From IMG/VR virus record IMGVR_UViG_3300012344_000014, positions 42,581-106,580 of that record: 64,000 bases of DNA. The stretch is one strand, 5' to 3'. This DNA is from a virus (taxonomy: Duplodnaviria; Heunggongvirae; Uroviricota; Caudoviricetes). This document shows positions 2,630 through 32,594 of the stretch, one piece after another. Numbering within the stretch: the first letter of the stretch is position 1; every line of letters starts with the position of its first letter. Position numbers and translations under genes: made by a program. A model generated the notes under the pieces. The model was not told the origin of the DNA, searched no databases, and saw only the letters and a program-made list of their open reading frames with translations.

Positions 2630-3811
2630 ATGGATATGGCAGACAAAATTTCTCTCGGCCGCGTTGTGACCGTACCGCGCGGCAAATATGACGCGAGCGC
2701 GGAATACAAAAAATAGGACATTGTGGAATATGAGGGCAACGGTTACATCGTGCTCAAGGACGTGAGCGGCACGGCGCCGACCGGCGCGAACGATGACCCG
2801 AACTATTCGCTTATCAGCCGGCGGGGGGCGACTTATACCCCGTCGGTGGACACAAGCGGGAACCTTACATGGGCAAACAACGCCGAACTGGAGAACCCGA
2901 CGGCGCGCAACATCACGGGGCCGAAGGGCGAACAGGGCGACCCCGGCAAGAACTTTACGATTAAGGGTGTATATGCGACGCTTGCAGCTTTGCAGGCAGG
3001 CGTACCAGCTCCGGCGCAGAGCGACTTCTATGCGGTGGGCACGGCCGGAGCGTATGAAGTTTACATGTGGAACAACAGCGCGTGGCTGAACATGGGATCG
3101 CTTCATGGCCCCGCAGGCCCCGCGTTCATTCCGAGCGTGGATGACGCCGGCAACCTGAGCTGGAGCGCGATTGAAGGCTACACCACGCCGACGACAAAAA
3201 ACATCAAAGGCCCTGCGGGCGACGTATGGAAGCCGACAGTGGCGGCGGATGGCGGAATCAGCTGGACGAAGGACAACACAGCGACTGCGCCGGCGGCTGC
3301 GAACATCAAGGGGCCTCAGGGCATTGCGGGGCCTGCGTTTGTGCCTACGGTGGCGGACGACGGCACGCTGAGCTGGGCACCTATTGACGGTTACACAACA
3401 CCGGCATCGAAAAACATTATGGGGCCGAACAAGATCACGGCGAACACGGCGACCGATTTCCCAAACACATCAGGGACGCAACGTTCCGGCATGCTGCGGG
3501 CGACCGGCGGAAAGGTGACGCTGGCTGTCGCGGGGCTGGATTACGCGGCTCCTCCGACCGTTACATCCATCACCCTGACGGCGGCGGGATGGACAGAGAA
3601 GGCGCAGACCATCAGCACAGGGCTGAGCATGGTGACGGCGAGCAACACAATTATTGTGGAGCCCGCGCCGGCCTCTGTCGCCGTATGGCGGGAGTGCGGA
3701 ATTTATTGTTCTGCACAAGCTGCGGGCAGCCTTACATTCACCTGTGTTGAGGACGCTCCCACGGACGCGGTAACTGTGAACGTCATGGCGATGGACACGA
3801 CGACGGCATAA
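2630..3811 (+). CDS. tail fibre protein 1 (read through in-frame TAG 2714-2716)
   Basis: ATG 2630 after a GGAGGG RBS is in frame with track ORF 2723-3811; only TAG 2714 separates them. Contains a short collagen-like GPKGEQGDPGK stretch. The C-terminal ~70 aa (TLTAAGW...YCSAQAAG.LTF.C) is shared with fibres 2 and 3. Confidence 0.75.
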
Positions 3812-4547: not shown

Positions 4548-5759
4548 ATGCCTCAGACCACAATTGCAACTGAGATTGCGCGTATACAGACAGATAGAAA
4601 TACAATCAGAACAAAATAGGTCGACCTTGGCCTTGCAACTTCGACGGCGACGCTGGACGATTTAGCAGCCGCGATTGAGGGGATCGAAAACAGGGGCGCG
4701 GTCAACGCCAGTGTCACTGAAGGCAACACCTATACCATCCCGAAGGGTTATCACAACGGGAGCGGCACCGTCGCGGGCGTTGCGGGCGGCGGCAACTACA
4801 CGCTGCAGGCGAAGAGCATCACGCCCACAAAGAAGGGACAGAACGTCACTTCCGACGACGGGTATTACGGCCTGTCTGCTGTAACCGTCGCGGCGATCCC
4901 CGAAGCTTATCAGGACGTTTCGAGCACAACTGCTGCGGCCGGGAATGTCTTGGCTGGTAAAGTGTTCGTCACGGCGGCGGGCACAGTCACGACCGGTACG
5001 ATGGTCAATAACGGCGCGGTTGCAAAGACATTGGATGCATCGACGACCAGCTATACCGTTCCTGCCGGATACCACAGCGGCGCTGGAAAAGTGCAGATCG
5101 TGACGGAAACCAAGTCTGTCACGCCTGCGGAATCTGCGCAGGACGTCACGCCGACAACCGGTAAGGTGCTGAGCAAGGTAACCGTCGGCGCAATCCCGGC
5201 CAAGTACGCGGACGCGACCGACGTGAGTGTTACGGCCGATAAGCTGCTCAAGGACGAAACCGCAATCGGCTGGGACGCGGAGGCGGAGGCCCCTGTGGCC
5301 GTGACCGGCACCATGCCGAATAACGGGGCTATCTCAAAGACACTGGACACAACGACAGCCAGTTATACCATTGCGAAGGGCTATCACGACGGTACCGGCG
5401 TGATTAAGCTGGTAACGGAAACCAAGTCCGCTACCCCGACCGAATCCACGCAGACAATTTCCCCGACAGCCGGCAAAGTACTTTCGAGCGTCACTGTGAA
5501 TCGTATTCCGACCAAGTACAAGGACGCGACCGGCATGACCGCCACGGCGGCGGGGATGCTGGCGGATACGACGGCGATCGGCTGGGACGCCGCCAAGTCG
5601 CTCCCTGTTGTGCTGACCGGTACAATGGCAAATAATGGCAGCGTTACTACCACCATCGACGGCCTGACGACCACTTCGGTTTCTATCCCTGCCGGTTACA
5701 CGACTGGCGGAACTGTTTCTCTCACTGATGATATTTATACCGCTCTTGCGGCGATTTAA
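4548..5759 (+). CDS. tail protein with ~90-aa tandem repeats (read through in-frame TAG 4617-4619)
   Basis: AAGGAG RBS then ATG 4548. The frame stays open to 5759 apart from TAG 4617. The repeat NNGA..KTLD....SYT.P.GYH.G.G recurs four times, and the first copy lies upstream of track ORF 4950-5759. Confidence 0.75.
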
Positions 5760-7676: not shown

Positions 7677-8765
7677 ATGATCTATAACAGCTCGACAGGC
7701 TCGACCGATATTCTGGTCTGGCAGAGCGTCGAAATCACCACCCCGCCCACGCGGACGACGTATAACATTGATGAAGCGTTCGACCCGGCGGGAATGGTCG
7801 TTTCGCTCGTTTTTGCGGACGGCACGCGCATCGCAACGAACGCCTATACCGTCTCGCCTGCCACGCTCACGCTGGAAACCACGGCCGTCACGCTGACGGT
7901 CTCCTTCGGTGGAGGGACAAAAACCGTCACGCAGGCCGTGACGGTGCAGGAAAAGAAGTCGATGAGCTATTCCGGCGCGCACACGGTGAAGGAAATCACC
8001 GTCGGTGGCGTGACGTACACGCAGTACACAATTACCGGTTCCGGAACGCTGACCGTCGAAGGTACGTACAACGACGCTGCGATATGGCTCTGCGGAGGCG
8101 GGGCAAACGGAACCACTCCGCAATATTCCGGAGGGCCTGGCGGCGCGGGCGCATACTGCGCGCAAGCAGACAATCAAACACTGCATGGAACTTATGTGAT
8201 TACAATTGGGGCCGCATCCGCCGCTACTTCATTTGGAGATCTATTGAGTGTCGCGGCTGTGTCTGGTGCGAGCGGAGGTACGGGCGGCGGAAGCTCAGGC
8301 GGCGAGGTCTACTGGGCAACTCAATATGAAACATCGGAGAGGCTGTGGTATAACCAGGGTGCTGGTGATAAAGTTGCAAAATATCCATTTTCTGATACAG
8401 CCAGTTTCCAGCCCCACTGCGCGGGAGGAGGCGGCGGTGCGTATTATCAGCGGACTCCCTCTCAGGACTTTGGGGCTACAGGTGGTGCAGGCGGCACAAA
8501 CGGCGAATCTGGCAAAACAGGCAGCCTGGTGTCTTACTCTGGAATTGGTAGCTTCTATGGAGGGAGTGGCGGGAGTCGCGGCGGCGGTAGCGGAGGGTCT
8601 TCAGGCAAATCAGTTGATGCGTCCGCTGGTGGCAATGCAACGTTCTACGGCTCTGGAGGTGGTGGTGGCGGATACTATGAAGCGACAGCGATAGGCGCCG
8701 CAACACAGAAGAAATCCGGCGGCGCTGGCTATCAGGGCATCGTTTACATCCGCGTGCCCGCTTAA
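7677..8765 (+). CDS. glycine-rich protein, paralogue 1 (N-terminal Ig-like domain)
   Basis: 362-aa ORF. The N-terminus resembles bacterial Ig-like repeats (ITTPPTRTTYNIDEAFDPAGMVV). It has the core WLCGGGANG and long GGxGG tracts, and ends GYQGIVYIRVP like paralogues 2 and 3. Confidence 0.75.
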   Translation: MIYNSSTGSTDILVWQSVEITTPPTRTTYNIDEAFDPAGMVVSLVFADGTRIATNAYTVSPATLTLETTAVTLTVSFGGGTKTVTQAVTVQEKKSMSYSGAHTVKEITVGGVTYTQYTITGSGTLTVEGTYNDAAIWLCGGGANGTTPQYSGGPGGAGAYCAQADNQTLHGTYVITIGAASAATSFGDLLSVAAVSGASGGTGGGSSGGEVYWATQYETSERLWYNQGAGDKVAKYPFSDTASFQPHCAGGGGGAYYQRTPSQDFGATGGAGGTNGESGKTGSLVSYSGIGSFYGGSGGSRGGGSGGSSGKSVDASAGGNATFYGSGGGGGGYYEATAIGAATQKKSGGAGYQGIVYIRVPA

Positions 8766-8789: not shown

Positions 8790-9608
8790 ATGATTTTCAA
8801 CAGAATGATCGGCGGCGGCGGGAAAGCGACGATAACATACAGCGGAACCCACACGACCGAAAGCTATACATTAAACGGGCAGACCTATACGTAGTATAAA
8901 ATTACCGGCTCGGGTACATTAACCGTCAAAGGCAAAGCGAAAGGCGTCAAGGTGTGGCTTTGCGGAGGTGGGGCAAACGGATTGGGTGGAGATGCTTCTG
9001 GTGGCGGGCGTGGCGGCGGCGGAGCGTTTTGTGCTCAGTATGACAGCCAAAAGTTATCCGGCGTATACACGATTGCAATCGCAAGTGGCGGTGGGAACAG
9101 CAGTATAACCACAAACGGGAACGTTGTTTTCTTAGCAAATGGAGCTAGCGGCGCGAACGGCGGCACGGGCGGCGGCGGCTCGGACGGCACTGGCGGCACG
9201 GGTGACGGAGTGACGAAGTATCCGTTCAGTGATTCCACCACTTTTCAATGTCATTGCGCGGGAGGCGGCGGCGGTTCAGGTAAGTATGTCACAAACTATG
9301 ATTGGGATAACTACACAGAATATTCTAATGTAGCTTACGCCGGGAATGGCGGTTCCAACGGCGCGGCAGGCGGTAAAGGCTCGTCACCCGTAACTTACAG
9401 CGCACGTAATGCTCCCGGAGGAAGCGTCGGCGGCGGAACCGGTGGCTCTAAGTCCGCGGGAAGCGCTGCGACGTTCTATGGGAGCGGTGGAGGTGGCGGC
9501 GGGAGCGAAGATTATTCCATTTCGCACGACCCCGGCTACGCAAACCGGAGTTACAGCGGCGGTTCCGGCTACCAAGGCATTGTATACTTACTCGTTCCAA
9601 TTGAATAA
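8790..9608 (+). CDS. glycine-rich protein, paralogue 2 (read through in-frame TAG 8892-8894)
   Basis: ATG 8790 is in frame with track ORF 8952-9608. The segment TYT-TAG-YKITGSGTLTV aligns with TYTQYTITGSGTLTV of paralogue 1. Confidence 0.75.
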
Positions 9609-9625: not shown

Positions 9626-9886
9626 ATGAAATTTGCAGTTTTATCGACGGACCATACGATGGTTGAAAATGTAATTGTGGCGCGCGAAGACCAGCAAAGT
9701 GAGCTGCAGATCGCGCTGGGGCGCGTACTGATCGACGCAGGGCCTCTTGGCTTGACGGTCGGTGATCTTTTTAACGGCAGTGCTTGGACGCGCAATATAG
9801 AAGGGGAACAGGTCACGCTGCCCATCGGCGACAGCGCGGCTGTCACGGAAGCAATTGCAATTCTGGAAGGAGCGGATGACGAATGA
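9626..9886 (+). CDS. hypothetical protein
   Basis: 86-aa ORF with an AGGAGGA RBS. Confidence 0.5.
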   Translation: MKFAVLSTDHTMVENVIVAREDQQSELQIALGRVLIDAGPLGLTVGDLFNGSAWTRNIEGEQVTLPIGDSAAVTEAIAILEGADDE

Positions 9887-10488
9887 ATATGAGCGAAAGC
9901 CAGCGAACCAAACTGAAAGCAATTCGAGCGGCGATGGACGGCGGCGTAACGCTTGCGGCGGCGCAGGGCGCAGTTGAAATTAACGCCGTAGTAGAAATGA
10001 TCCGCCCTTGGAAGGCGGGCGCATATGCAGTAGGCGATGTTCGAGTTTATGCAGGCGTCCCGTACAAGTGCGTGCAGGCGCATGACTCGACCGAAAACAC
10101 GGACTGGACCCCGGATAAATACCCGGCGCTGTGGATGCAGTATCATGGCACATCCAAGGAGACGGCGCGGGCATGGGTTGCCCCGACCGGCGAGCAGGAT
10201 ATGTACCGCAAGGGCGAATGGATGATCTTCACGGACGGTAAGTATTACGAGTGCCTGACCGACACGAACTACAGCCCCACCGATCTGGCGAGTACATGGA
10301 AAGCAGACGGAGAAGAAACCGGAACCGAAACCGACGAATGGCCTGCGTTTGTTCAGCCGACCGGGGCACACGACGCATACAAGACCGGCGACAAGATAAC
10401 ATTCAATGGCAAGCATTACATCTGCAAGATGGACGGCTGTACCTATTCTCCGACCGACTACCCGGACGGCTGGACGGAACAGGCATAA
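9883..10488 (+). CDS. putative carbohydrate-binding protein (three CBM5/12-like repeats)
   Basis: The pattern W/Y-K-x-G-x(5-9)-Y-x-C-x(5-10)-W/Y-x-P occurs three times (e.g. WKAGAYAVGDVRVYAGVPYKCVQAH...WTPDKYPALW). Family assignment is from memory. Confidence 0.55.
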   Translation: MNMSESQRTKLKAIRAAMDGGVTLAAAQGAVEINAVVEMIRPWKAGAYAVGDVRVYAGVPYKCVQAHDSTENTDWTPDKYPALWMQYHGTSKETARAWVAPTGEQDMYRKGEWMIFTDGKYYECLTDTNYSPTDLASTWKADGEETGTETDEWPAFVQPTGAHDAYKTGDKITFNGKHYICKMDGCTYSPTDYPDGWTEQA

Positions 10489-10509: not shown

Positions 10510-12747
10510 ATGATAACAATTAACGCGGCGTTCTCCCAGCGGGAACAGGAGCTTGGCCTGATCGGGCGGCGCGGGGAAAACGGAACAAGGCAGATTGCCT
10601 TTGACTGCGGCGAAGTCCTCGCCGAATACCCCGGCGCGAGTATTGTATGCGCGATGCAGCGGCAGGGCGACCTTGGGGCGTACCTGAAGGAATGCAGCGC
10701 AGACGGCAGCGCGAGAATTATTACGATTAGCGACGCGGACGTTTCTATCCCCGGCCAGATGAGGATAGAACTCCGCGCTCTGGTCGGCGACAAGCGGGTG
10801 AAGAGCGCGGTCTATACGGCGACGGTGGCCAGCAGTCTGATCGGGCAGGCGGAAACGCCGGACAGCCCCGTGGCGGACACGCTGGACAAACTCGAAGGCG
10901 CGCTGAGCAACGCGCAGGCAATTGTGGCGACCGTGCAGACAAAACTGGATAACGGCGAATTCGTCGGAGCGCAAGGCCCTCAGGGACCGCAGGGACCAAA
11001 AGGCGACACGGGAGCAAAGGGAGACACAGGCGCACCTGGCAAAGATGGCAAGGACGGCAAAGACGGCGCAAAGGGCGAAGACGGTAAAAACTTCCGCGTG
11101 CTCGGAACCTATGCGACGCTGAGCGCGCTGCAGGCGGCTGTAACCGCACCGGCGCAGGGAGACTATTACAATATTGGTACGGCTGCGCCTTACACGATCT
11201 ACATGTGGGATACGTCAAAGGGCTGGCAGGATCAGGGACAGCTGCAGGGACCGACGGGTGCGAAGGGTGACCAAGGCGCGAAAGGCGACACTGGCGCGGC
11301 AGGCAAGGATGGTAAAGACGGCGCGGACGGCGCGACATTTACCCCGGCGGTAAGCGAAGCGGGCGTGCTGAGCTGGACGAACAACAAGAGCTTGACGAAC
11401 CCGGCGAGCGTAAACATCAAGGGCCCAAAGGGCGATACTGGTTCTCCCGGCGCGAAGGGTGAAACAGGAAGCCAAGGCGCAAAGGGTACCGACGGCGTAT
11501 CCCCGACCATTACAGTAAGCAAGACGGGCAAAGTCACGACACTGACCATCACAGACAAAGACGGCACGAAGACCGCGACCATTAACGACGGCGCGGACGG
11601 CGATGGTGCGGGCTCTGTTGGCGACATGCAGAAAGCCATTTACGACGCGAACGGCGACGGAATTGTGGACGATGCGGCCAAGCTGGGCGGACAGCTGCCG
11701 GCATATTACGCGAAAGCGTCCGATCTGTCCGGCAAAGTAAGCGCGGTAACAGGCAAGGGGCTTTCCACGAACGATTACACGACGGCGGAGAAAGAAAAAC
11801 TGGCTGCAATCGAGGCGGGGGCGCAGAAGAACGTTGCGCCGACATGGACGAGCGTTACAGGAAAACCTGACGCCTTTACACCGGCCGACCACACCCATGC
11901 ACAGACGGACATCACTGGATTGGAAACCGCACTGGCAGGGAAGGTGAGTGCCGTAACGGGCAAAGGGCTATCCAGCAACGACTACACGGACGACGAGAAG
12001 ACAAAGCTTGGTGGCATCGCAGCCGGGGCGCAGAAAAATGTACAGGCGGACTGGACGGCGACAAGCGGAGACGCTTTCATCAAGAACAAACCCACGATCC
12101 CCACAGTCCCCACGAAGGTGTCCAGTTTTGAAAACGACGCTAAATATCTGACGAGCTACACAGAAACCGATCCCACGGTTCCTGCATGGGCGAAAGCCGA
12201 AAGCAAGCCCGCCTACACGGCAAGCGAGGTGGGGGCTGAGGCGAGCGGTGCTGTGAACACACACAACACCTCTTCTTCCGCGCACTCTACGCTATTTTCG
12301 GCAAAGCAGAACAAGATTACCGCTACGGGTCTACTGAAAGGAACTTCCACGGGGATTACGGCTGCGACGGCAGGAACGGATTACGCTGCGGCAAGCCACA
12401 CACATACGGCGGCGGACGTTACGGGGCTTGCGACGGTTGCCACATCCGGAGCATACGGCGACCTGAGTGGAAAACCGACTATACCGACCCTCTATGCTTA
12501 TACGGTAAGCCTGACGGCGGCAGGATGGGATGCGACGGAGAAAACGCAGACCGTGACCGCCACCCATGTGACGGCTGATAATCTGGTGCAGGTATCGCCG
12601 GCGGAAGCAAGCTTTGAGGCATGGCAGACGGCAGAGATTCGATGCACGGCACAGGCGGCAGGAACGCTTACTTTTATTTGCGGCGGCGATGTGCCGAACG
12701 AAGCGGTAACATACAACGTGGTGGTCATAGAAGGAGTGACGGCATGA
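10510..12747 (+). CDS. collagen-like tail fibre protein 3
   Basis: 745-aa ORF with three G-X-Y tracts, repeated GKGLS.NDYT modules and the shared C-terminal module. Confidence 0.85.
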   Translation: MITINAAFSQREQELGLIGRRGENGTRQIAFDCGEVLAEYPGASIVCAMQRQGDLGAYLKECSADGSARIITISDADVSIPGQMRIELRALVGDKRVKSAVYTATVASSLIGQAETPDSPVADTLDKLEGALSNAQAIVATVQTKLDNGEFVGAQGPQGPQGPKGDTGAKGDTGAPGKDGKDGKDGAKGEDGKNFRVLGTYATLSALQAAVTAPAQGDYYNIGTAAPYTIYMWDTSKGWQDQGQLQGPTGAKGDQGAKGDTGAAGKDGKDGADGATFTPAVSEAGVLSWTNNKSLTNPASVNIKGPKGDTGSPGAKGETGSQGAKGTDGVSPTITVSKTGKVTTLTITDKDGTKTATINDGADGDGAGSVGDMQKAIYDANGDGIVDDAAKLGGQLPAYYAKASDLSGKVSAVTGKGLSTNDYTTAEKEKLAAIEAGAQKNVAPTWTSVTGKPDAFTPADHTHAQTDITGLETALAGKVSAVTGKGLSSNDYTDDEKTKLGGIAAGAQKNVQADWTATSGDAFIKNKPTIPTVPTKVSSFENDAKYLTSYTETDPTVPAWAKAESKPAYTASEVGAEASGAVNTHNTSSSAHSTLFSAKQNKITATGLLKGTSTGITAATAGTDYAAASHTHTAADVTGLATVATSGAYGDLSGKPTIPTLYAYTVSLTAAGWDATEKTQTVTATHVTADNLVQVSPAEASFEAWQTAEIRCTAQAAGTLTFICGGDVPNEAVTYNVVVIEGVTA
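10966..11088 (+). repeat. collagen-like G-X-Y coding repeat (first of three tracts in fibre 3)
   Basis: GAQGPQGPQGPKGDTGAKGDTGAPGKDGKDGKDGAKGEDGK. Further tracts start near 11248 and 11422. Confidence 0.8.
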
Positions 12748-13505
12748 TATTGAATATAAGCTTGCCCGGCAAGGCGGGAAAGGCCGAGTTCACCTATACC
12801 GGTGCTTACACGCTCAAGCAGATCACTTCCGGTGGCGTGACGTATGACCTGTATACGCTGACCGGCTCTGGCACGCTGACCGTGACGGGGACGGCGAAGA
12901 ATGTGGATGTGTGGTGCTGCGGGGGCGGGGCAACCTACTCGTATTACAGCGGCGGTGCTGGCGCGTATTGCGCGCAGGTAGACGCTCAGTCCCTTCACTG
13001 TGATTATGTGGTTGCCATAGGCGGTTCCGGCGGGAATACCTCAGTTGGCTCACTTGTCAGTGCGAATGGCACGACAACAGCCAACGGGGGCACAGGTGGC
13101 GGCGGTGGAAATATTGGCGCAAACTTTAACGCTCCCACAGGCGACGGGATAACTAAATACCCTTTCGGGGACACGACAAACTTTAGGTGTCATTGCGCAG
13201 GCGGCGGCGGTGGCGGCGTGAATTATTCCTCCGACGATAATAGTTGGCAATACAATGGCGGCGCTGGCGGCTCGAACGGTAGCAACGGGGCAAAGTCAAC
13301 AAGCGGTATCGGCGACGCTGGCGCTGGTGGTAATTATGGCGGTGGGCAGGGCGGTTCGCGTCACTCGATCAATGGCAAAGCTGCGACATTTTATGGTTCT
13401 GGCGGCGGTGGATATGGTGCGGGTTCTATGGGAACTTACGGGCCAAATACCGGTACCGCTGGTGCGGGTTACCAAGGCGTCGTCTACATCCGCGTACCGG
13501 TATAA
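12744..13505 (+). CDS. glycine-rich protein, paralogue 3
   Basis: AAGGAG RBS; ATG 12744 overlaps the fibre 3 stop (ATGA). Contains VTYDLYTLTGSGTLTV, WCCGGGA and the GYQGVVYIRVP ending. Confidence 0.75.
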   Translation: MILNISLPGKAGKAEFTYTGAYTLKQITSGGVTYDLYTLTGSGTLTVTGTAKNVDVWCCGGGATYSYYSGGAGAYCAQVDAQSLHCDYVVAIGGSGGNTSVGSLVSANGTTTANGGTGGGGGNIGANFNAPTGDGITKYPFGDTTNFRCHCAGGGGGGVNYSSDDNSWQYNGGAGGSNGSNGAKSTSGIGDAGAGGNYGGGQGGSRHSINGKAATFYGSGGGGYGAGSMGTYGPNTGTAGAGYQGVVYIRVPV

Positions 13506-13848: not shown

Positions 13849-14250
13849 ATGAATAAAGTGTTTTGCATTTTGCTCACATAGGTTTTTATGATGACAGTAT
13901 GCGTTGGTATCGCCGCGGCGGAGACAGCGGCTGAACCGACCGCTCCTGTGGCACCTGTGACTGAACCGGACGCTGCCGGTGCTTTCGACCTGACCGAACT
14001 GGCAGTGGCGGTGCTATGCTTTGTGCTCGGCCTGTTGACCACGATCGTGACGGGCGTAGTTCGAAAGAATTTCAACAAGAACAAGCTCACCAAGCAATAC
14101 GACGAACTGTGGGCCCTCATCGGACAGAAACTGGAACAGGCGGGGCTAAAGGTCGACCGCGCGGCTATTGAGGCGGCGCTGAAACAGATGAGTGCCGCGG
14201 CACTGAAGGAGCTCGCCAAAGCGTTTAATAATGACGAACAGGCTGAATAA
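13849..14250 (+). CDS. membrane/secreted protein upstream of the endolysin (read through in-frame TAG 13879-13881)
   Basis: AAGGAGG RBS then ATG 13849, in frame with track ORF 13888-14250. The N-terminus MNKVFCILLT-TAG-VFMMTVCVGIAAA looks like a signal peptide, and a second TM segment is present (LAVAVLCFVLGLLTTIVTGVV). Confidence 0.6.
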
Positions 14251-15158
14251 TGAACATCAAGGTTAAGCTCACGCGTAAAACAAACGCGGACTATTATCAT
14301 GCTGCCAAAGGGGATGTTGTTTCCATCCCCTTCGAGCAGTATTTACTGGGCGTTGTGGCGAGCGAGATAGGAGTCGCCCCGCTGGAGGCATGCAAAGCAC
14401 AGACCATCGCGGCTCGAACATACGCGCTCCCGTATCTAACGAAGGGCGTGCCCATCAGCGACGCGTCCTCTACGGCGCAGGCGTATCGGGCGGAGCGGGC
14501 TGTAGACCCTGCTTATGAAAACGCGCATCGCGGCGTAAAAGCAACGGCCGGACTCGTGCTCTATTATGACGGCAAACCTCTGACAAGCTGCCCGTTCAGC
14601 AAGTCAAATGGCGGGCGCGAAATCAGCAACGCGGAGCGTTGGAATTCAACGGCGCTCCCATACCTGCCTTCGCAGGATGACCCGTGGGACTTGGCGGCTA
14701 CAAACGGAAAGAAGTTGGGACACGGCGTGGGCATGAGCCAGGAAGGCGCGAAGTACGCGGCGGGCACGCTCGGCAAAACCTGCGAGGAAATTCTCGCGTT
14801 TTATTATCCGGGGTGCGAAATACGCCCCGCGCAAGAAAAAGAGGTGCCGATAACAATGATTGGAACGGTAACGACCGCGAACGGCGGCGCGCTCAATATG
14901 CGGAAATATCCAGGCGCTTCGGCTGACCGGATTCTGAAGATTCCTAATGGGGCTGAAGTGAATATCCTGAGCACGGAAACGATCACGGACGGGTGGTACG
15001 AAGTGGAGTACAATGGGCAAACGGGGTATGTTATGGCCGCCTATGTGTCGGTGCGTGGTGAATCCGAGCCTAGTGCCTACACGGTCGGCGTCCGGTTCGA
15101 CACAAGAGCCGAGGCCGAAGCGTTCAGAGCCTTGCTTCAGCAGGCAAAAATATATTGA
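14250..15158 (+). CDS. endolysin: SpoIID/LytB-like domain plus C-terminal SH3b
   Basis: SpoIID-type motif YLLGVVASEIG...EACKAQTIAARTYAL. SH3_3-like C-terminus GALNMRKYPG...GWYEVEYNGQTGYVMAAYV. Confidence 0.8.
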   Translation: MNIKVKLTRKTNADYYHAAKGDVVSIPFEQYLLGVVASEIGVAPLEACKAQTIAARTYALPYLTKGVPISDASSTAQAYRAERAVDPAYENAHRGVKATAGLVLYYDGKPLTSCPFSKSNGGREISNAERWNSTALPYLPSQDDPWDLAATNGKKLGHGVGMSQEGAKYAAGTLGKTCEEILAFYYPGCEIRPAQEKEVPITMIGTVTTANGGALNMRKYPGASADRILKIPNGAEVNILSTETITDGWYEVEYNGQTGYVMAAYVSVRGESEPSAYTVGVRFDTRAEAEAFRALLQQAKIY

Positions 15159-15173
15159 CAGGAGTGATTCCTG

Positions 15174-15488
15174 GTGGAATGGCTAATTCAATTCCTGGTA
15201 AAGTATTGGGTTGAGTAGCTGCTGACGGCGGTCGTTGGAGCGTTCGTCGCGTATATCAAGAAAGAGGCGAGCACGCAAAAAGCGCTCAGACACGGAATGG
15301 TGGCGCTGCTGCGGGACCGGCTTTATCAGGCACACAATCAATACGAACATCTCGGGTATTTTCCAATCGATGCGCGCGAAGTGGTCGAGGATATGTTCAA
15401 ACAATATATAACGCTCGGCGGGAACGGCATTGTCCGGCATTTGAAAGAGGCGCTGGACGAACTCCCCACTGAGCCAGGGAAACAATGA
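15174..15488 (+). CDS. holin-like membrane protein (read through in-frame TAG 15216-15218)
   Basis: GGAG RBS 9 nt before GTG 15174, in frame with track ORF 15297-15488. The N-terminal TM segment WLIQFLVKYWVE-TAG-LLTAVVGAFVAYI is present only if TAG is read through. Confidence 0.55.
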
Positions 15489-15904: not shown

Positions 15905-17527
15905 TCATAAGGAAACATTCTATTGGTCGAGCTTCCCGGCGAACTTGTAGTAAATTTCTATTTTCTGCGTTGGTTTGCCATTCTGGTCACAGCGTCTATC
16001 GTGGACTACGATTTTGTCGATCAGCGCATTGAGCATCGGGATAGTCAGTTTGGTTGGATGGGTGTAACGTTTGACCATGTTAGCCCATTCGTTAAGACCT
16101 CTTTGGGTTTCGTCGGTAGCTCGTTGTGCTTCTTCGGCGGCAGCGATGAATTCTTGAAGGGCGGTTTGCTCGTCTTGGTATTTTTTGAGCAGCGTCGAGA
16201 AATTGTTCGGAGTGATGTTTCCTTCGGCGCGATCCTCATAGAGTGAGGCGAGCATCCCGTCTATTTTTCGTAGACGCCGCTTTTTATCATCAAGCTTCGC
16301 TTGCTCCTTGTCCCCACTAGACTGAGTTGCTTTGCGCGAAGAATTCATAATCTCCTGGGCAAAATCTATTTCGTTCCCAGCGAGTGTCGAGGTCCAATAC
16401 TGTATCCGTGATAGCACATAATTGTAGAGGGTAGACTGCCTTATGTAATGCGCGGTGCAGTGTTCTTTACCGAATTCCGAATATTGCCGGCAGACGTAGG
16501 CTTTATCGTCGGGAGCATAGCAGGGACGGGCTTTCAACGCTTTCCCGCAGGTTGAACATTTTAGCAGACCGGCGAAAAGCTGGGGCGTCCCATCCCCGCA
16601 GGAACGACGCCGCCGTGAAATATTTTCCTGAACCCGCTCGAATGTCTCGCGCGATATAAGAGGCGGATGGGTATTTTCTACCCGGTAAAACTCATCAGCG
16701 GAGTTGTGAATTCGTTTTTTGCTTTTGTACGAAATCTTTTGCCTGCGGTAATGAATCGTATTTCCAATGTATGTTTCATCCATCAGTATGGAACGCACGG
16801 CGGAGCTTTGCCAGAAGCTTTTCTTCTCTTCGGCGGCGTTCTCATAGTATTGCGAATACGCGCCGTAGCGGCTATAGCCAACCCAGCCCGGGGTAGGGAC
16901 TTTGGACGTCCTCAGATACCTTGCGATTACATTGTAGCCGTTTCCTTCCAGCGCAAGCGCGTATATCTTTTCGATGATCCAGCGGGTGTCTTCGTCGATG
17001 AGGAGTTTGCCTTTTTCTTTCGGACTCCATATATAACCGAGCGGCGGTGTGGGGCCTAGGCGTTCGCCTTTTTCATATTTCGCTTTTAGCGCGGCCTTTA
17101 CTTTCCGGCTGGTGTCTTTGGCGTACCACTCGTTGAAGAGGTTCTTAAAAGGGGAGAAGTCGCTCATACCTTTCTCGGAGTCTTCGCCGTCGTTTACCGC
17201 CACATAGCGGACGCGCTTCTCAGGGAACACGTATTCCAAGTAGCGATCCACCTGAATGTGTTCGCGCCCCAACCGGGAGAGGTCTTTTGTGATAACGCAA
17301 TTCAACGCGCCTTTGTCAATGTCCGCCATCATACGTTGAAACGCCGGTCGGTCAAAATTTGTACCAGACCATCCATCGTCGACGTATTCATCATAAATCG
17401 CAATGTTGTTGTCTTCGCAATATTGATGAAGAATCCGGCGCTGCGTTTCAATGCTGCCGCTGTCGCCCGGCTCTCCGTCATCGTTGCTTAGCCGCATGTA
17501 AAGAGCGGCTACCCAGGGTTGTTTCAT
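15905..17527 (-). CDS. large serine recombinase (integrase)
   Basis: Resolvase-type N-terminus (ALYMRLSNDDG...SIETQR), recombinase and zinc-ribbon regions and a C-terminal coiled coil. AAGGAGG RBS before ATG 17527. The frame meets TAG at 15920-22, then TGA at 15905-07. Confidence 0.9.
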
Positions 17528-19806: not shown

Positions 19807-20019
19807 ATGCATAAGCCGTTAGGTAGCAAAGAGGTTATCTCGATACTCGAAAAGTAGCAGTGGCGCAAGCTCAAAAACCGTGGTAAGGGAAGCCATACGG
19901 TTCTTGAGAACCCTGAGAACGGGCTCCACGTTACGGTACCCCGCAGCAAAGAACTCCCAGCGGGAACCTAGAAGAGTATCGGGCGGCAAACCGGTGTGAA
20001 TTTTGATGATCACCGGTGA
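19807..20019 (+). CDS. hicA: HicA-like mRNA-interferase toxin, copy 1 (in-frame TAGs at 19855 and 19969)
   Basis: AGGAGGTG RBS. The sequence ...EVISILEK-TAG-QWRKLKNRGKGSHTVLENP..HVTVPRSKELPAGT-TAG-KSIGRQTGV matches the HicA pattern (GSH ... VP ... GT.xSI.xQxG) only if both TAGs are read through. Confidence 0.65.
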
Positions 20020-21493: not shown

Positions 21494-21499
21494 TATAAT
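21494..21499 (+). promoter_or_regulatory. candidate promoter for HicA-like gene 2 (TTGTAT-N17-TATAAT)
   Basis: -35 TTGTAT (21471-76), 17-nt spacer, TATAAT (21494-99). An alternative -10, TATATT, lies at 21474-79. Confidence 0.4.
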
Positions 21500-21518
21500 G
21501 AGTGCGGAGGTGATTTTC

Positions 21519-21734
21519 TTGAAGAAGAACATATCTTCTCGGGAAGTTATCTCAATACTCAAAGAGCACGGATTCGTAGAAGACAAACGCCGGAGGACGG
21601 GCGGAGACACTATCTTTGTTAAACAGGGCTAGACGTCACACGTAAAAGTCCCCACAGGCCGGGAGTCGATACGAATCGGTACTTAGGTTAGTATCGAGAA
21701 ACAGTCCGGATTGCCCATTCGGTGTTAGCTGTAA
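21519..21734 (+). CDS. hicA: HicA-like protein, copy 2, divergent (in-frame TAGs at 21630, 21684 and 21726)
   Basis: GGAGGTG RBS then TTG 21519. REVISILKEHGF... and ...VKVPTGRESIRIGT-TAG-VSIEKQSGL are paralogous to copy 1, with TAG at the same GT-TAG-xSI position. GSH is replaced by GGD. TAA lies at 21732. Confidence 0.5.
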
Positions 21735-24378: not shown

Positions 24379-24556
24379 CGGCCGGTACCTGCACATAGAG
24401 GCCGCAGCAACATTCCTTTGTCGTCCGGAACGCAAGGCACGGACATTTGTTATCATCAGTCTTCTCGACCCGGCAGGGGCAATAGCCGTTGTTAGCGGCT
24501 ATTCTCCCCCTGAGCATCGCGACGAAATCCTTATCAGGATTCAGTTTGATTTTCAT
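24371..24556 (-). CDS. ferredoxin-thioredoxin-reductase catalytic-subunit-like small Cys protein, copy 1
   Basis: NPDKDFVAMLRGRIAANNGYCPCR......KCPCLAFR....CCCGLY. Paralogue at 30201-30419. Family call is from memory of the FTR beta CPC...CPC...CHC pattern. Confidence 0.55.
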   Translation of the reverse strand: MKIKLNPDKDFVAMLRGRIAANNGYCPCRVEKTDDNKCPCLAFRTTKECCCGLYVQVPADD

Positions 24557-26855
24557 ATTCCTGTCCACCGAAATACCTCCGGTCATATTCATTCTTGCGC
24601 TCGGCCGACCACTTCGACACGCGGGTCAGATAGCCGATGATGCGCGTGGCATAATCCAGATTTTCACTGCTGCACTTTGGGCACTTCTCCAGCTTGTGCT
24701 TGCTGATATACCCGCAGTCGTTGCAGATGGTATTGGGAACGTTGAAGGTAAAATACGAGCAGCCTTCATGAATCGCGTTGAGAATGAGCAGCTCGTACTG
24801 GCGAGCGGTGAGGTGTTCTTCGAGGTTGATATGGCAGGCGCTGCCGCCGTCGAGATTGCGGATATAACGATCGCCATGCAGCCGAATCTTATCAAGAACC
24901 GTTGTTTTAGGATCTTCAACCACGAAGAAATAGCTGTTATAACACGCTCTCGGGACGGAGAGCCCGTCGGCTTTATCCCATTTGGCGTTCTTCACGCCTA
25001 AGCTTTCGGCTGGCACGTACTCCGTGTTAAACATAACGCCCGGCTCGGCATCGGCCACGTTCCGCCGGTGAATCGTATCAAGGATGAGATCAGTGAACTC
25101 GCCGTAAGCCTTGTTGTCACCGACCGGAATGCCCAGATACTCCGCCGCCTCGACCAGACCGTTGATGCCAACGGTAAGATACTGCTTCTCCGGCGAAACG
25201 AACCCTGCGTCATAAAGCGGGATCATATGCTTGGCCTGCGCATCCTTCACCATCGCGTTATACGCTTTCAAATAGCGATGGACATGCGCGGTCAGATCGT
25301 CAAGCGAGGCTTTGACCTTGGCCAGATCGCCGCCGCAGCCCTGAACGAGCCGGTTGATATTGATGGTCATGACGCGCTTGGAGCCGGTCGCGATGCCGCC
25401 CGCGCCAAGGCTGTAAGTGAACTGGTTTTCAACGATGTTGTTTTTCAGGCGGCAGTTATGCGTAATTACTCCGGAGGGAAGCATGAAGTAGGGCTCGCAC
25501 CCATCATCAACCTCGAGGCAGTAAACATAATCGTATGTATTGGCGCTCTCGATCACCTCAGATACCGGGCGGTATGTATACATCCTGCTTTCGGGATCCC
25601 AACACTGGACTTCATCCCCCTCGACGAGCTCCTTCGCCTGGACGTCTCCGCGCCGGGTGGGGAAAAGATGGTTATCCGTCACCTCATACATATGGCGGGC
25701 GTTCGGCTTGACGTCGATTGTGATAAAATACATCTGACGGCCGGGGAGACGAATGAGAGTCGCGGGAACCACTTCCTCACCGAGCATAACCCGAACACGA
25801 AAATCCTGTTCCTGTTCAAGCATCTGGTAAAGACGCTCTGCAGCCCCGACAAGCAATGTGTTATGCTGGTCCCAGACGGAGAACAGTGTATCCGGCGCAA
25901 AGCAGCACGAACTCAAGCTATCCACGCTATCGCTGGTATAAGTGAAAAAACTGTGCCCTTCGGCATACATCTCGGCGATATGCTTCAGTGCCCGCTGGTC
26001 AACAGCCGTCTTGCCGTTGTTCAGGAGAGAGAACGTTTCGACCGGGAAGGTGATGATCTTGCGGAGCCGCTCCTGATTAAACCACTTCATAAACCGAACC
26101 TGCAGCCACCAGAGGGACTCCCAGAGATCGGTCATTACTGTGCCGTCCGGGAAGGCGAAACCTTCGAACAGCCCGCGGAAATACGGCTCATCAAAATAGG
26201 AAATATTCCAGAAGACGGCCTGATTGCCGCGCGCCGCCGCCGGTTGATTGACCGAGTAGACAACCTGCGCGAAGGTATCGGTGATCACGTTATCAATGGT
26301 GCGCTTGCGGCCGAACAGTTCGGCTTGCGTATCCGGCTTCAGATAATAATCTTCGCCGTATTCCTTGACGAGGAAATAGTTCATATAGGCGAGAAACTCC
26401 GGGGTGGCAATCGCGCCGAGCACCTGAGCGGAAGCGGCGAACACCAGATTGACAAACCCGCCGGCGAAACTTTGCAGCGTCTTGGGAGCGTCCGACGTGC
26501 CGCCCAGCCCCTTCAAGCCGTGCAAAAGAAACGGGTACATAGTGATGCTAGCGCAATAGATCTGCGGGGTCTGGCCGGTTTCATCATGGCAATAGACACG
26601 ATGGGTTTCGAGGTTATCAATGTAGCTGTCGGCCTCTTCCTCGCCGTACATGGCGGTGAGCATATCATGCATCATCAACCGGCTGGTATAGATGCGGCCG
26701 CGCTTACCGCTTTCGGACGCGAGGGTGGCCAGATTCTTTGAACTGACATTGGAGTTTGGATCATAGTCGCTGCTTTCGGCGGCGCATTTTTCATCCATAT
26801 AACGTCTGATGAAATTTGCTTCCGGACGATAGCGCGCATATTTGTCGGGGATCAT
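24534..26855 (-). CDS. nrdD: anaerobic (class III) ribonucleotide reductase, intein-containing
   Basis: 773-aa ORF; Zn ribbon CNDCGY..KCPKC, glycyl-radical motif TRIIGYLTR, and the active-site SSC/CRL motif split by an insert. Confidence 0.95.
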   Translation of the reverse strand: MIPDKYARYRPEANFIRRYMDEKCAAESSDYDPNSNVSSKNLATLASESGKRGRIYTSRLMMHDMLTAMYGEEEADSYIDNLETHRVYCHDETGQTPQIYCASITMYPFLLHGLKGLGGTSDAPKTLQSFAGGFVNLVFAASAQVLGAIATPEFLAYMNYFLVKEYGEDYYLKPDTQAELFGRKRTIDNVITDTFAQVVYSVNQPAAARGNQAVFWNISYFDEPYFRGLFEGFAFPDGTVMTDLWESLWWLQVRFMKWFNQERLRKIITFPVETFSLLNNGKTAVDQRALKHIAEMYAEGHSFFTYTSDSVDSLSSCCFAPDTLFSVWDQHNTLLVGAAERLYQMLEQEQDFRVRVMLGEEVVPATLIRLPGRQMYFITIDVKPNARHMYEVTDNHLFPTRRGDVQAKELVEGDEVQCWDPESRMYTYRPVSEVIESANTYDYVYCLEVDDGCEPYFMLPSGVITHNCRLKNNIVENQFTYSLGAGGIATGSKRVMTININRLVQGCGGDLAKVKASLDDLTAHVHRYLKAYNAMVKDAQAKHMIPLYDAGFVSPEKQYLTVGINGLVEAAEYLGIPVGDNKAYGEFTDLILDTIHRRNVADAEPGVMFNTEYVPAESLGVKNAKWDKADGLSVPRACYNSYFFVVEDPKTTVLDKIRLHGDRYIRNLDGGSACHINLEEHLTARQYELLILNAIHEGCSYFTFNVPNTICNDCGYISKHKLEKCPKCSSENLDYATRIIGYLTRVSKWSAERKNEYDRRYFGGQEYENQTES
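25455..25904 (-). mobile_element. mini-intein (150 aa) in nrdD
   Basis: The insert starts CFAPDT directly after SLSSC and ends VITHN, followed by +1 Cys (CRLKNN). Removal restores the SCCRL-type motif. No endonuclease motifs were seen. Confidence 0.85.
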
Positions 26856-27064
26856 TCAACAGATACTCCTTTGCTGAGATATTTCATGGCCTGCGCAAAG
26901 TTCATGAGATTGCCGTCCTTGTCTTCGAGGGCGGGGACAACCTGAATGCCTTTTGCCTTCAGCTGCTCCGCATCGGAAACAATATTGCATGGGATCTAAA
27001 GCTGCGCGAGCCGCTCGGCAAGCAGGTCGCACATGGGGCAGCCGGGAAGAGTATAAAGCGTCAT
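26852..27064 (-). CDS. NrdH/glutaredoxin-like redoxin (read through in-frame TAG 26996-26998)
   Basis: AAAGGAG RBS then ATG 27064. MTLYTLPGCPMCDLLAERLAQL-TAG-IPCNIVSD...VVPAL carries a CPxC motif and cis-Pro VP. The TGA overlaps the nrdD ATG (ATGA). Confidence 0.7.
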
Positions 27065-27082: not shown

Positions 27083-27122
27083 TCATATAATAAAGGGAAC
27101 ATTTTCATGCCCCCTTTTTCAC
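27083..27122 (-). promoter_or_regulatory. conserved intergenic element, copy 1 (candidate phage-specific promoter)
   Basis: The - strand reads TGAAAAAGGGGGCATGAAAATGTTCCCTTTATTATATGAAAGGAG, just upstream of the nrdH-like/nrdD/nrdG operon. Near-identical copies lie at 32556 and 51774. Confidence 0.5.
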
Positions 27123-27628
27123 ATTTGAAAAATTTTATTTTGAATAAGCCACGCGACGCCTACCGCAACCGCATCAGATTCGTCGTCGCAGGCGTAACGC
27201 TGAGGGCCGACATAATCCTCAAGCATCTCGGCCACGCGGTCTTTCTCCGCATTGGCGTCGCCGGTGACGATGCGCTTGGTCATGCGAGGATCGATCTCTT
27301 CAAACTCTCTGCCTGTCAAATGCCAGGCATAAAGATCGGCCACGCCGACAACCTTATGCAAAACCCCGATGGTCTTCATCTGATAGCGGCCGGGGTAAAT
27401 CGCTTTCTCTCGAACCAATATGGCGTCCGGATAAGCGGTCATATATCGCTTCTATTCGCGCGCAATCTCCAGAAGCATCTGGCCATGCGTTTTCTTGCGG
27501 GCATACTTGTTGTTGACATTGCTGAGCTCGCGCACGGTGATCGTATTATTCTCACAATGAAGCAGCGCAAAGCCGGGGCGATGGAGCGAGAGATCGCAGG
27601 CGAAGACATCGACGGCGGTTTCAGGCAC
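27119..27628 (-). CDS. ruvC: RuvC-like Holliday junction resolvase (read through in-frame TAG 27452-27454)
   Basis: GAGGGGA RBS then GTG 27628. The N-terminal half (VDVFACDLSL...LLEIARE) and C-terminal half (YPDAILVRE...TGDANAEKDRV...DESDAVAVGVAW) are in one frame, separated only by TAG. Confidence 0.75.
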
Positions 27629-30419: not shown

Positions 30420-31080
30420 TCTTTTCCTCCCATGTGATATCATCAAAAATAACGGGAAACAGTTTCTGGAATTCGCAAAGCAACGGGCGCATGAGCGAGC
30501 GCATTTCCGGATAAGCGGCCGACGAGGTGCGCAGCTGAAAAATATGCCGCCATTCCCGCAGGTTTGCCTTCATGACGATGATGCAGGCGGTAGAATTGGG
30601 GAGCACCTTGCGCGCGTCTTCCGCCTTCATGCCGCACTCATACCTGAGATACCGGTAATAAGTTTCGGCATGCTCCATGGACGCATCCCAGCCGCGGGAA
30701 GCGCACCATGTTTTCGCATCCAGATCGGGGCCTTCGGCTGGAAGATAGATATCCGGCCGGATGAAGCTGATATCTCCGGTCTTATCATCTTCGACATAGC
30801 GCTGGCTCTGAACGCAGAAACTGGGGAGCCGGTGCCGTGTGATCTCGGCCAGGACATCGCGCCCGGTGACGAGCTCAACCATGGCGTCGCCAAACTCAAT
30901 AGGGGCTTCATGCCCCCGCTTTATAAGCCCGCCAAGAAACTTGCGCCAGCTATCGGCCGTGATTTTATCATGCGAGCGATAGCAATTACGGGCGGCGTAT
31001 TCGATAAGGCGCAGCGTTTCCAGTGCGCGCTCCGGCGTGGACGGCGAGAGAATCTTAAAAGACTGGTTAATTACCTTCAT
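30412..31080 (-). CDS. thyX: flavin-dependent thymidylate synthase
   Basis: ThyX signature RHRLPSFCVQSQRY. Start at ATG 31080 (MKVINQSFKIL). Confidence 0.9.
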   Translation of the reverse strand: MKVINQSFKILSPSTPERALETLRLIEYAARNCYRSHDKITADSWRKFLGGLIKRGHEAPIEFGDAMVELVTGRDVLAEITRHRLPSFCVQSQRYVEDDKTGDISFIRPDIYLPAEGPDLDAKTWCASRGWDASMEHAETYYRYLRYECGMKAEDARKVLPNSTACIIVMKANLREWRHIFQLRTSSAAYPEMRSLMRPLLCEFQKLFPVIFDDITWEEKNA

Positions 31081-31444
31081 CGAAGGTTGATTCCTCCTTT
31101 CCTTCTTCATTATTAATGAGGGAATCCGCCTCGACGCCGTCCGTGTTTTCAGGATCGGTTTCAGCGTATTCGCTATCCCGATCATAGAGGTTGCCGCGCA
31201 TATCGCCGTTGAGGCGCATGAGCAGCGTTTCAAACCGGAGAGAGGAGAGCATAACGGTGCCCTCGTTAAAGAGAATGACGGAGCGGATTTTGCGCCCGAC
31301 CGTCGCATCCAAGAGATGCTTACGGCCTTTGGCAGCTTTGACCTATTCTTTCGAAGTCATGGTGCGCGGGTTAAGAACGGCAATGACATGATTGGCGCAG
31401 ACGGCATGCTTCAGGCCAGCGTTGACAAAGCGCAGTTCTTCCAT
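31067..31444 (-). CDS. RemA/DUF370-like protein with acidic tail (read through in-frame TAG 31343-31345)
   Basis: ATG 31444 abuts the upstream stop. MEELRFVNAGLKHAVCANHVIAVLNP..SKE-TAG-VKAAKGRKHLLDATVGRKIRSVILFNEG.VMLSSL..ETL..R follows the RemA pattern across the TAG, in frame with track ORF 31067-31312. Confidence 0.65.
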
Positions 31445-32555: not shown

Positions 32556-32594
32556 CATATAATAAAGGGAACATTTTTCACCCCGCTTTTTCAG
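32556..32594 (-). promoter_or_regulatory. conserved intergenic element, copy 2
   Basis: The - strand reads TGAAAAAGCGGGGTGAAAAATGTTCCCTTTATTATATGAAAAG, between the Pol III alpha stop and the SPFH gene. Confidence 0.5.

Follow-up and report, generated by a model that had tools for sequence, protein, structure and literature searches.

The 64,000-nucleotide stretch analyzed here (the window; positions 42,581 to 106,580 of IMG/VR record IMGVR_UViG_3300012344_000014) carries phage genes whose reading frames contain the stop codon TAG, and our subject is the amino acid placed at these codons. One of them, at positions 8892-8894, lies in g10 (8790-9608, plus strand), which encodes a glycine-rich protein in the tail-fiber region. 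The window is 100% identical to part of the Logan contig SRR1747039_750 (112,235 bp), with window position w equal to record position 74,242 - w. Together with L002 and L004, which add 20 kb of flanks, it allowed 84 of the 112 kb of the window phage to be read; L001, L002 and so on are labels of loci compared with the window. Gene content and Pfam hits in the flanking loci (YonB, YomX, YomU, YOMG and a 2,055-amino-acid tape-measure protein) identify the window, on sequence grounds, as part of a temperate, SPbeta-like siphophage that is ~112 kb long and probably infects gut Clostridia. Three relatives recur below: L001, a contig from another sample that is 97% identical to the window; L167, with a median protein identity of 74% to the window phage; and L007, whose tape-measure protein is 69% identical.

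In-frame TAG codons of the window phage

Genes were called with TAA and TGA as the sole stops and with our own choice of start codons. In this calling the 84 kb hold 26 in-frame TAGs in 19 of ~106 genes, a sparse usage of about 1 per 1000 codons. The following sites lie in the window; the list includes one leucine codon whose orthologue is TAG in L001.

2714-2716, plus strand: TAG at codon 29 of the tail-fiber-like gene g4 (2630-3811); kept in L001 and L003; phrog_5073 spans it (residues 10-68)
4617-4619, plus strand: TAG at codon 24 of g7 (4548-5759), a 403-amino-acid tail protein; kept in L001 and L003
8892-8894, plus strand: TAG at codon 35 of glycine-rich g10 (272 amino acids, 8790-9608), context TYT-TAG-YKITGSG, with paralogue homology on both sides; TAG in L001
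9913-9915, plus strand: CTG (Leu) at codon 11 of g12 (9883-10488); TAG at the orthologous codon in L001
13879-13881, plus strand: TAG at codon 11 of g16 (13849-14250), in a signal-peptide or transmembrane hydrophobic region, beside the SpoIID/SH3 lysin
15216-15218, plus strand: TAG at codon 15 of g18 (15174-15488), a lysis-region protein; phrog_4105 spans it (residues 9-102)
15920-15922, minus strand: TAG at codon 536 of the large serine recombinase (15905-17527), five codons ahead of its TAA
19855-19971, plus strand: two TAGs (19855, 19969) in the HicA-like toxin gene g28 (19807-20019), the second in GT-TAG-KSI; Pfam HicA_toxin (residues 7-64) spans both
21630-21728, plus strand: three TAGs (21630, 21684, 21726) in a second HicA-like gene (21498-21734); 21684 is in GT-TAG-VSI and 21726 is two codons before the TGA
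26996-26998, minus strand: TAG at codon 23 of glutaredoxin-like g38 (26852-27064), with weak Pfam Glrx-like and phrog_22 matches; TAG in L167
27452-27454, minus strand: TAG at codon 59 of g39 (27119-27628), a RuvC-like resolvase; Pfam RuvC (residues 14-158) spans it; TAG in L167
31343-31345, minus strand: TAG at codon 34 of RemA-like g47 (31067-31444; Pfam RemA-like, residues 6-78); TAG in L167
38272-38724, plus strand: four TAGs (38272, 38407, 38644, 38722) in a tandem pair of paralogous genes for small membrane proteins (38176-38421, 38548-38805)
41985-41987, plus strand: TAG at codon 8 of g56 (41964-42122), a small hydrophobic protein; TAG in L167
42715-42717, minus strand: TAG at codon 116 of PAPS-reductase-like g57 (42202-43062); Pfam PAPS_reduct (residues 25-231) spans it
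60096-60221, plus strand: two TAGs (60096, 60219) in a 93-amino-acid membrane protein (60045-60326) whose ribosome-binding site, GGAGG, is strong

The coordinates that a first-pass annotation of the window had given for such sites are correct throughout, and TAGs 13879, 15216, 41985 and 60219 do sit in the hydrophobic stretches that it described. Its description of 26996, 27452 and 21630 as more polar is also accurate. The polar sites, however, fall in variable columns (the PAPS reductase loop, the first TAG of the second HicA-like gene, and g4).

Several features indicate that these codons are translated. Domain alignments run across them: Pfam HicA_toxin (twice), RemA-like, RuvC and PAPS_reduct, and the PHROG profiles for the distal tail protein (Dit) and phrog_4105. 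TAGs 2714, 4617 and 8892 are unchanged in L001, and L167 retains TAG at 8 of 10 comparable sites, 21684 among them. TAG sites were compared within called genes; an all-frame version was dominated by conserved non-coding frames. TAG is also depleted as a terminator, which is a criterion for recoded phages: at the ends of ~88 genes, TAA occurs 44 times and TGA 42 times, and TAG is found within the last five codons in just three. Under the standard code a gene caller cuts g7 to 269 amino acids. Database copies of the RemA-like gene end after the TAG (four truncated copies, the sole matches to a joint HicA+RemA query). The spanning domains, the retention in L001 and L167 and the near-absence of TAG as a terminator thus mark the phage, as far as sequence can tell, as truly if sparsely TAG-recoded, with TAGs that are neither assembly errors nor chance.

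The opposite view is that the TAGs are true stops, whether nonsense mutations in pseudogenes, stops followed by downstream restarts, or sites of low-level near-cognate read-through, with no dedicated decoding. Many do lie near the 5' end, where a restart is conceivable (g4 has a GTG two codons after TAG 2714), and the terminal TAGs of the recombinase and of the second HicA-like gene resemble real stops. We nevertheless regard this explanation as very unlikely, since TAG persists over 26% protein divergence and in a second sample, domains continue through it, and it almost never terminates a gene. The residues and tRNAs described below also bear on it. At the recombinase, TAG 15920 probably is a real stop in the lysogen: Pfam DUF4368 (67 positions) ends at residue 533-534, right before the TAG at codon 536, and the gene has no internal TAG. 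Suppression at this codon would add five residues (LNVSL).

Probable leucine at TAG positions

The gene g10 belongs to a set of three glycine-rich paralogues, 53-55% identical and all on the plus strand (7677-8765, 8790-9608 and 12744-13505). They have in common an N-terminal module (ITGSGTLTV / WLCGGGA) and the C-terminus GYQGIVYIRVP, and homologues are present in IMG/VR phages. As the first-pass annotation had noted, TAG 8892 stands opposite CAG (Gln) at 8022-8024 in paralogue 1 (g9) and CTG (Leu) at 12849-12851 in paralogue 3 (g14), and the alignment spans the TAG. The glutamine of paralogue 1 turns out to be the exception, because the column holds Leu in 13 and Val in 2 of 15 IMG/VR homologues.

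Similar alignments are available elsewhere. In the tandem membrane-protein paralogues, TAG 38722 (GL-TAG-GM) lies opposite TTA (Leu), as the annotation had claimed, TAG 38644 opposite CTG (Leu), and TAG 38272 opposite TGG (Trp); 38644 and 38722 are still TAG in L167. In a codon-by-codon alignment of g12, L001 has AAA TAG AAT where the window has AAA CTG AAA. Codon 674 of the Prophage_tail gene is TAG in L007 and CTG in L002, L003 and L005. At TAG sites of L005 and L007, homologues have Leu in 30 of 31 cases, Leu 10 / Val 5 / Ile 1, and a single Leu (three sites).

For a Codetta-like test against Pfam, six TAG proteins were joined end to end, and their eight TAGs were together replaced by one residue after another until all 20 had been tried. 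The Glrx-like segment was unscored in the concatenate, which left contributions from seven TAGs belonging to four families (HicA twice, RemA, RuvC and PAPS). Leu gave the highest sum at 215.0 bits, followed by Met (211.3), Val (210.6), Ile (209.7), Phe (206.7), Tyr (203.0), Glu (201.2), Gln (200.5), Ser (200.0), Lys (199.1) and Trp (194.5); the difference between Leu and Gln is 14.5 bits. Because HMMER bits are log-odds against background and leucine is a common residue, its lead is larger still in raw emission probability. The signal came from the two HicA GT-TAG-xSI sites, RemA and RuvC. When a single residue stood at all four TAGs of HicA, Leu scored best (79.6 bits, against 76.1 for Val, 75.6 for Met and 70.4 for Gln), in line with the earlier expectation of Leu in both GT-TAG-xSI copies. 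RemA gave 60.5 for Met, 59.9 for Ile, 59.8 for Leu and 56.8 for Gln, which agrees with the hydrophobic position assigned to its TAG in the annotation. RuvC gave 24.6 for Val, 23.8 for Leu, 23.7 for Ile and 21.2 for Gln, and the PAPS-reductase column was flat (50.6-52.3 bits over all 20 residues).

A larger sample is provided by the clade to which the phage belongs. Alignment of the capsid (YonB) C-terminus yielded 80 metagenome, 51 IMG/VR and 5 genome loci, and genes were called, with TAG treated as a sense codon, in the window and in L001-L095, the loci from Logan, ENA and the metagenomes. The clade loci differ in TAG density, from 0 to 8 per 1000 codons, with L023, L024 and L025 among the heavy users. 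For each TAG, the residues facing it in homologous proteins of the other loci were counted, provided that the pair had 30-97% identity and a local identity of at least 0.4. The majority residue at the 389-390 sites was Leu in 255 (66%), followed by Ile (29), Lys (20), Pro (12), Met (11) and Gln (10). Likelihoods were computed from an empirical substitution matrix derived from the same alignments, with one effective observation per site, and their log2 values were -1009 for Leu, -1368 for Met, -1531 for Ile and -1956 for Gln. As a control, 12 of 12 sense codons returned their own amino acid by the same procedure. The leucine codons TTG (L.66, I.08, M.06, V.05) and CTG face the same spectrum of residues as TAG does (L.59, I.07, M.06, V.04), unlike CAG (Q.55, E.08, K.07). 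Moreover, the leucine codons found opposite TAG track overall leucine codon usage, so mutation bias cannot explain the pattern; transitions would favor CAG and TGG. Column inference over many homologue alignments, which the first-pass annotation had proposed as a check, therefore gives columns dominated by Leu.

One TAG position, at about codon 30 of the terminase large subunit gene (IWYWRTH-TAG-D; L014:3835-5514, L036:4266-5966, L042:4261-5967), is common to several lineages and has Leu in other lineages.

These distributions bear on all three competing explanations. If the TAGs were stops passed only by near-cognate read-through, the inserted residues would be mainly Gln, Tyr, Lys or Trp, whereas the columns are Leu; and mutation alone would have produced TAG by transitions from CAG and TGG, not from Leu codons. 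A second explanation is ordinary code 15, in which a tRNA-Gln-derived suppressor inserts Gln, as in crAss-like phages, Lak phages and phAss-1. It has precedent throughout the phage literature searched, and both the CAG of g9 and the g4 column discussed below would suit it. We consider it very improbable indeed, given the deficit of 14.5 bits in the Pfam test, the 10 of 390 clade sites with a Gln majority against 255 with Leu, and the quite different profile of the CAG control. Under the third explanation TAG stands for a different hydrophobic amino acid (Met, Ile or Val), or its decoding is ambiguous or depends on the lineage within the clade. RemA does prefer Met and RuvC prefers Val, each by less than 1 bit. 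Clade-wide, Met and Ile fall 359 and 522 log2 units below Leu, and the Ile, Met and Val fractions opposite TAG equal those opposite true leucine codons. Furthermore, MetRS, IleRS and ValRS (the methionyl-, isoleucyl- and valyl-tRNA synthetases) depend on the anticodon, so that a tRNA with anticodon CUA is unlikely to be charged by them. This third explanation thus also has little to recommend it, and we rate its chances as slim. Readings of TAG as pyrrolysine, Tyr or Ser, prompted by the "Pyl" label that ARAGORN assigns and by long variable arms, were ruled out by the columns, the discriminator base A73 and the D-arm.

The first-pass annotation had warned that Gln should not be assumed, and had seen contexts pointing to Leu or a hydrophobic residue; all tests run agree, and they narrow the choice to Leu. 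We therefore estimate at roughly 0.85 the probability that TAG in the window phage is read as leucine, and our confidence that it is so read across the clade is higher.

Candidate suppressor tRNAs and a proposed translational gate

In relatives at 52-67% capsid identity we found 15 distinct types of tRNA(CUA), dedicated genes of a kind that would not be expected if TAG were simply a stop. The gene stands at the head of the structural module: in most loci with ~10 kb of sequence upstream of the capsid gene, it is found on the strand of that gene and 8-10 kb upstream, alone in some loci and within arrays of up to 16 tRNAs in others. Isotype was judged by A73, D-arm identity and the variable arm, not by isotype-specific models. 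The discriminator is A73 in 15 of 15 types. The D-arm, (G/C)AAyUGGCA(G/U)A with a 3-bp stem, is the same as that of Leu-anticodon tRNAs (CAA, UAA, UAG, AAG) of the same arrays, and the nearest neighbor by D-arm is a Leu-anticodon tRNA for 9 of the 15; it differs from the D-arms of the Ser tRNAs (G73) and the Tyr tRNA of the same arrays. Lengths range from 76 nt, as in L036, to 92 nt, with 87 nt in L010, and 6 of the 13 types displayed by ARAGORN, all of 86-92 nt, have a stem-forming extra arm. In most, the D-loop is 11 nt long and contains GG, and the T-loop is normal. Fourteen fold to one cloverleaf with compensatory changes at 20 of 20 pairs and an invariant CUAA in the anticodon loop, and six score 37-52 bits on the Rfam tRNA model (threshold 29).

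No tRNA-Gln gene is present in the arrays of the relatives, and none of the 15 tRNA(CUA) types sits with one, which again argues against code 15. The outcome that the first-pass annotation had named as settling the matter for Gln, a tRNA-Gln-derived CUA suppressor together with columns dominated by Gln, was found in neither part. A BLAST search with the L010 tRNA(CUA) against E. coli genomes gave no match. Against phages, its 5' half gave weak partial matches (E 0.2), the best of them to Stenotrophomonas phage genes annotated as tRNA-Leu.

LeuRS, the leucyl-tRNA synthetase, makes no use of the anticodon and relies chiefly on A73 and D-arm/tertiary elements, and an amber suppressor arises readily from tRNA-Leu by mutation, E. 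coli supP being an example. For these reasons the tRNA(CUA) of the relatives would be expected to insert Leu.

Leu-anticodon tRNAs (CAA, UAA, UAG, AAG) of the arrays are themselves just 75-80 nt long (L010:161-237, 1566-1642 and 1874-1950; also L023, L024 and L025). They are without the long variable arm normal in bacterial tRNA-Leu and keep A73 and the Leu-type D-arm; several tRNA(CUA) genes are shortened in the same way. Three loci (L034:237-322, L037:169-248 and L094:169-248) combine a tRNA(CUA) upstream of the head module with a lack of in-frame TAG over the 20 kb read, and may show the situation before, or after, the spread of TAG sense codons. The 77-nt tRNA(CUA) at L014:1461-1537, also present in L040 and L107, is without G18G19, has a UUUAAGU T-loop and a G1-U72 pair, and scores below the Rfam threshold.

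A number of observations weigh against reading TAG as leucine, particularly in the window phage itself. No tRNA was detected in the window, L002 and L004 (ARAGORN and Rfam; 84 of the 112 kb), nor in the tape-measure neighborhoods of L001, L003 and L005-L009 (ARAGORN), and ARAGORN at lowered thresholds returned only noise for the window phage's own tRNA; the absence from the 84 kb would also suit true stops. The identity elements that the first-pass annotation had wished to see are Leu-like in the relatives (A73, the D-arm and several long variable arms), but the suppressor of the window phage was not seen in those 84 kb. In the Pfam test, which draws on the window alone, Met, Val and Ile trail Leu by just 4-5 bits. 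When residues were substituted in PHROG columns, those for Dit and g18 favored Leu by only about 1 bit, too weak to discriminate (0.8 bits over Gln for g18 at 15216); in the weak, polar g4 column at 2714, Gln scored 1.1 bits above Leu. The g7 column at 4617 is covered by no profile. In one paralogue, g9, the residue in the 8892 column is Gln. At two loop positions that are variable by profile score, L167 carries Trp (TGG, 21630) and Lys (AAA, 42715), as ambiguous decoding might produce. Finally, the L014/L040 lineage combines its degenerate 77-nt tRNA(CUA) with ambiguous columns (Leu -38.0 versus Gln -39.7). Its TAG columns are mixed, with three purely Leu, two mostly Lys and two mostly Asp, and these strongly Lys- and Asp-aligned sites, with the aberrant tRNA, speak for lineage-dependent decoding.

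With leucine as the preferred reading, we propose the following mechanism. A phage-encoded amber-suppressor tRNA with anticodon CUA, derived from tRNA-Leu, would be encoded in the window phage within the remaining 28 kb of the 112 kb, where the terminase, portal and capsid genes should also lie. Host LeuRS would charge it with Leu, mainly via A73 and D-arm/tertiary features, and the charged tRNA(CUA) would outcompete release factor 1 at UAG. TAG-bearing genes would then yield full-length products only with the suppressor expressed: those for tail fibers, the distal tail protein, the lysis region, the RemA-like and RuvC-like proteins, small membrane proteins and both HicA-like toxins. The serine recombinase would stop at its terminal TAG in the lysogen. 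The TAGs may in this way act as a timing gate on translation.

The placement of the codons bears on this proposal. Thirteen of 26 TAGs fall within 40 codons of the start and 19 of 26 within 60 codons; for the 267 Leu codons of these genes the counts are 75 and 107 (Fisher p = 0.025 and 0.0016, respectively). In long genes, TAG is at codon 24-35 of 272-403. The recombinase, with its terminal TAG right at the end of DUF4368, also speaks for a gate. A test on relative position gave no significant result (p = 0.25), many of the TAG-bearing genes being short. On our own start-codon calls, the 5' bias of TAG is suggestive. Such sparse and early use, mostly in the first 60 codons, fits a cheap translational gate. 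TAG occurs in tail, lysis and accessory genes and also in non-late genes (RuvC, Glrx, PAPS reductase), and the recombinase is without internal TAG.

On the whole, we think it likely that UAG has been reassigned to Leu throughout a clade of temperate, SPbeta-like phages from gut and rumen Clostridia, by means of phage-borne suppressors derived from tRNA-Leu, some without the long variable arm. The lineage of the window would make minimal use of the new codon, with one or two 5' TAGs in selected tail, lysis and toxin genes serving as a suppressor-dependent translational gate.

Phage context and known recoding systems

The window as a whole is organized as follows.

1 to 13.5 kb: tail and tail-fiber genes
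14250-15158: SpoIID+SH3 lysin, in the lysis region
15905-17527, minus strand: large serine recombinase (Pfam Resolvase, Recombinase, Zn_ribbon_recom, DUF4368)
after the recombinase, minus strand: long replication and nucleotide-metabolism block (PolIII alpha with intein, NrdD, primase-helicase, ligase, ThyX, SHMT, ClpP, PhoH, PARP-like)

In the DNA polymerase III alpha gene (32578-37089, minus strand), the intein is marked by Pfam Intein_splicing at residues 391-802. NrdD (24534-26855, minus strand; 773 amino acids) matches its profile in two stretches, and its L167 orthologue, at 930 amino acids, has an annotated intein. A protein with WGR and PARP catalytic domains is encoded at 38881-40535 (minus strand), and the L167 orthologue of the adjoining gene has a faint Macro-domain match; the two may form an ADP-ribosylation writer/eraser pair in a phage. 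A 504-amino-acid protein with DUF2828 and DUF7788 domains is encoded among the replication genes (48030-49544, minus strand). The tail-tube region of a related phage contains a group I intron (L014:14448-14703; Rfam RF00028, 71.7 bits).

The phage is remote from cultured ones. The closest, Lactococcus 949 and Geobacillus E3, reach only ~42% identity, in PolIII alpha, and the first 25 kb of the window had no megablast match among GenBank phages. A capsid query found relatives at 50-67% identity only; scans of IMG/VR, JGI and GTDB gave no capsid closer than 71% identity, and a tape-measure query against IMG/VR gave no match, nor did an exact 48-mer occur there. The few capsid homologues in GTDB genomes are mostly from Clostridia/Eubacteriales metagenome-assembled genomes.

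A leucine reading of TAG in the clade, if correct, would be the first natural case of an amber-to-leucine code among viruses or bacterial translation systems. TAG recoding in phages is now annotated by default with table 15 (TAG = Gln), so automatic annotation would mistranslate hundreds of proteins of a widespread gut and rumen phage clade, and structure predictions and proteomic searches would carry the wrong residue at conserved hydrophobic positions. It would also mean that phages can recode via the anticodon-blind LeuRS, beyond the synthetases for Gln and Trp. The sparse, 5'-biased TAGs offer a clean natural system for asking whether recoding times lysis and lysogeny, and relatives with a tRNA(CUA) and no TAG in the 20 kb read possibly give a view of the onset of a code change. 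For synthetic biology, the tRNA-Leu(CUA) variants with a short arm could attract interest as compact suppressors.

TAG-to-Gln recoding with a phage suppressor tRNA is known from the gut phages crAss-like, Lak, Garnet/Topaz and phAss-1 (10.1101/2021.08.26.457843; PMC9523058; PMC10607447). Borges et al. (10.1101/2021.08.26.457843) found only TAG-to-Gln and TGA-to-Trp in phages whose code differs from that of the host, and proposed that GlnRS and TrpRS, the tRNA synthetases for glutamine and tryptophan, are inherently open to repurposing. The first-pass annotation had called Gln the usual reading, and it is the sole meaning of TAG in the phage literature that we searched. The window phage resembles these code-15 phages in having in-frame TAG in structural and lysis genes, a host presumed to use the standard code, avoidance of TAG as a terminator, a phage-encoded tRNA(CUA) (here in relatives), a recombinase without internal TAG, and a proposed late-gene translational switch. 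It would differ from them in reading TAG as Leu rather than Gln and in a suppressor apparently derived from tRNA-Leu, and hence served by an anticodon-blind synthetase; TAG is also very sparse in its lineage, at ~1 per 1000 codons. Membership of phAss-1 in the clade was considered and rejected (terminase large subunit 24% identical, no capsid match).

Like pyrrolysine decoding, the system has a dedicated tRNA(CUA) that would read UAG, and ARAGORN labels all CUA tRNAs "tRNA-Pyl". However, tRNA-Pyl has a short D-loop without G18G19, a 3-nt variable loop and a 6-bp anticodon stem, whereas most tRNA(CUA) here have a G18G19 D-loop and a normal T-loop, several have long variable arms, and the columns are Leu. 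No pyl genes were found among the window proteins scanned with Pfam (the TAG-bearing ones and ~20 others).

In the literature searched, which left out most subscription journals, UAG-to-Leu was found only in green-algal and chytrid mitochondria and in phyllopharyngean ciliates, with no report from a phage; a search for phage, amber suppressor and tRNA-Leu together returned nothing relevant within the same limits. The Leu reading is thus most likely a variant of phage stop-codon recoding unreported in that literature, and an earlier report is possible. UAG is read as Leu in NCBI codes 16 and 22 (chlorophycean mitochondria) and, according to PMC11687900, in phyllopharyngean ciliates. The codon and its new meaning are the same as those proposed here, but the known cases are organellar or nuclear and genome-wide, while here a virus would recode within a standard-code bacterium, probably conditionally.

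A mechanistic parallel is the E. coli suppressor supP (Su+6), a tRNA-Leu whose anticodon has changed from CAA to CUA and which is still charged with Leu and inserts it at UAG. The phage tRNAs would likewise be tRNA-Leu with a CUA anticodon, and charging by the anticodon-blind LeuRS, as in supP, is to be expected. In contrast, supP is a laboratory or spontaneous host mutation that suppresses nonsense alleles, whereas here the suppressor is a conserved phage gene, several of the phage tRNAs have lost the long variable arm, and TAG sense codons have arisen by the dozen in the phage genome around this gene.

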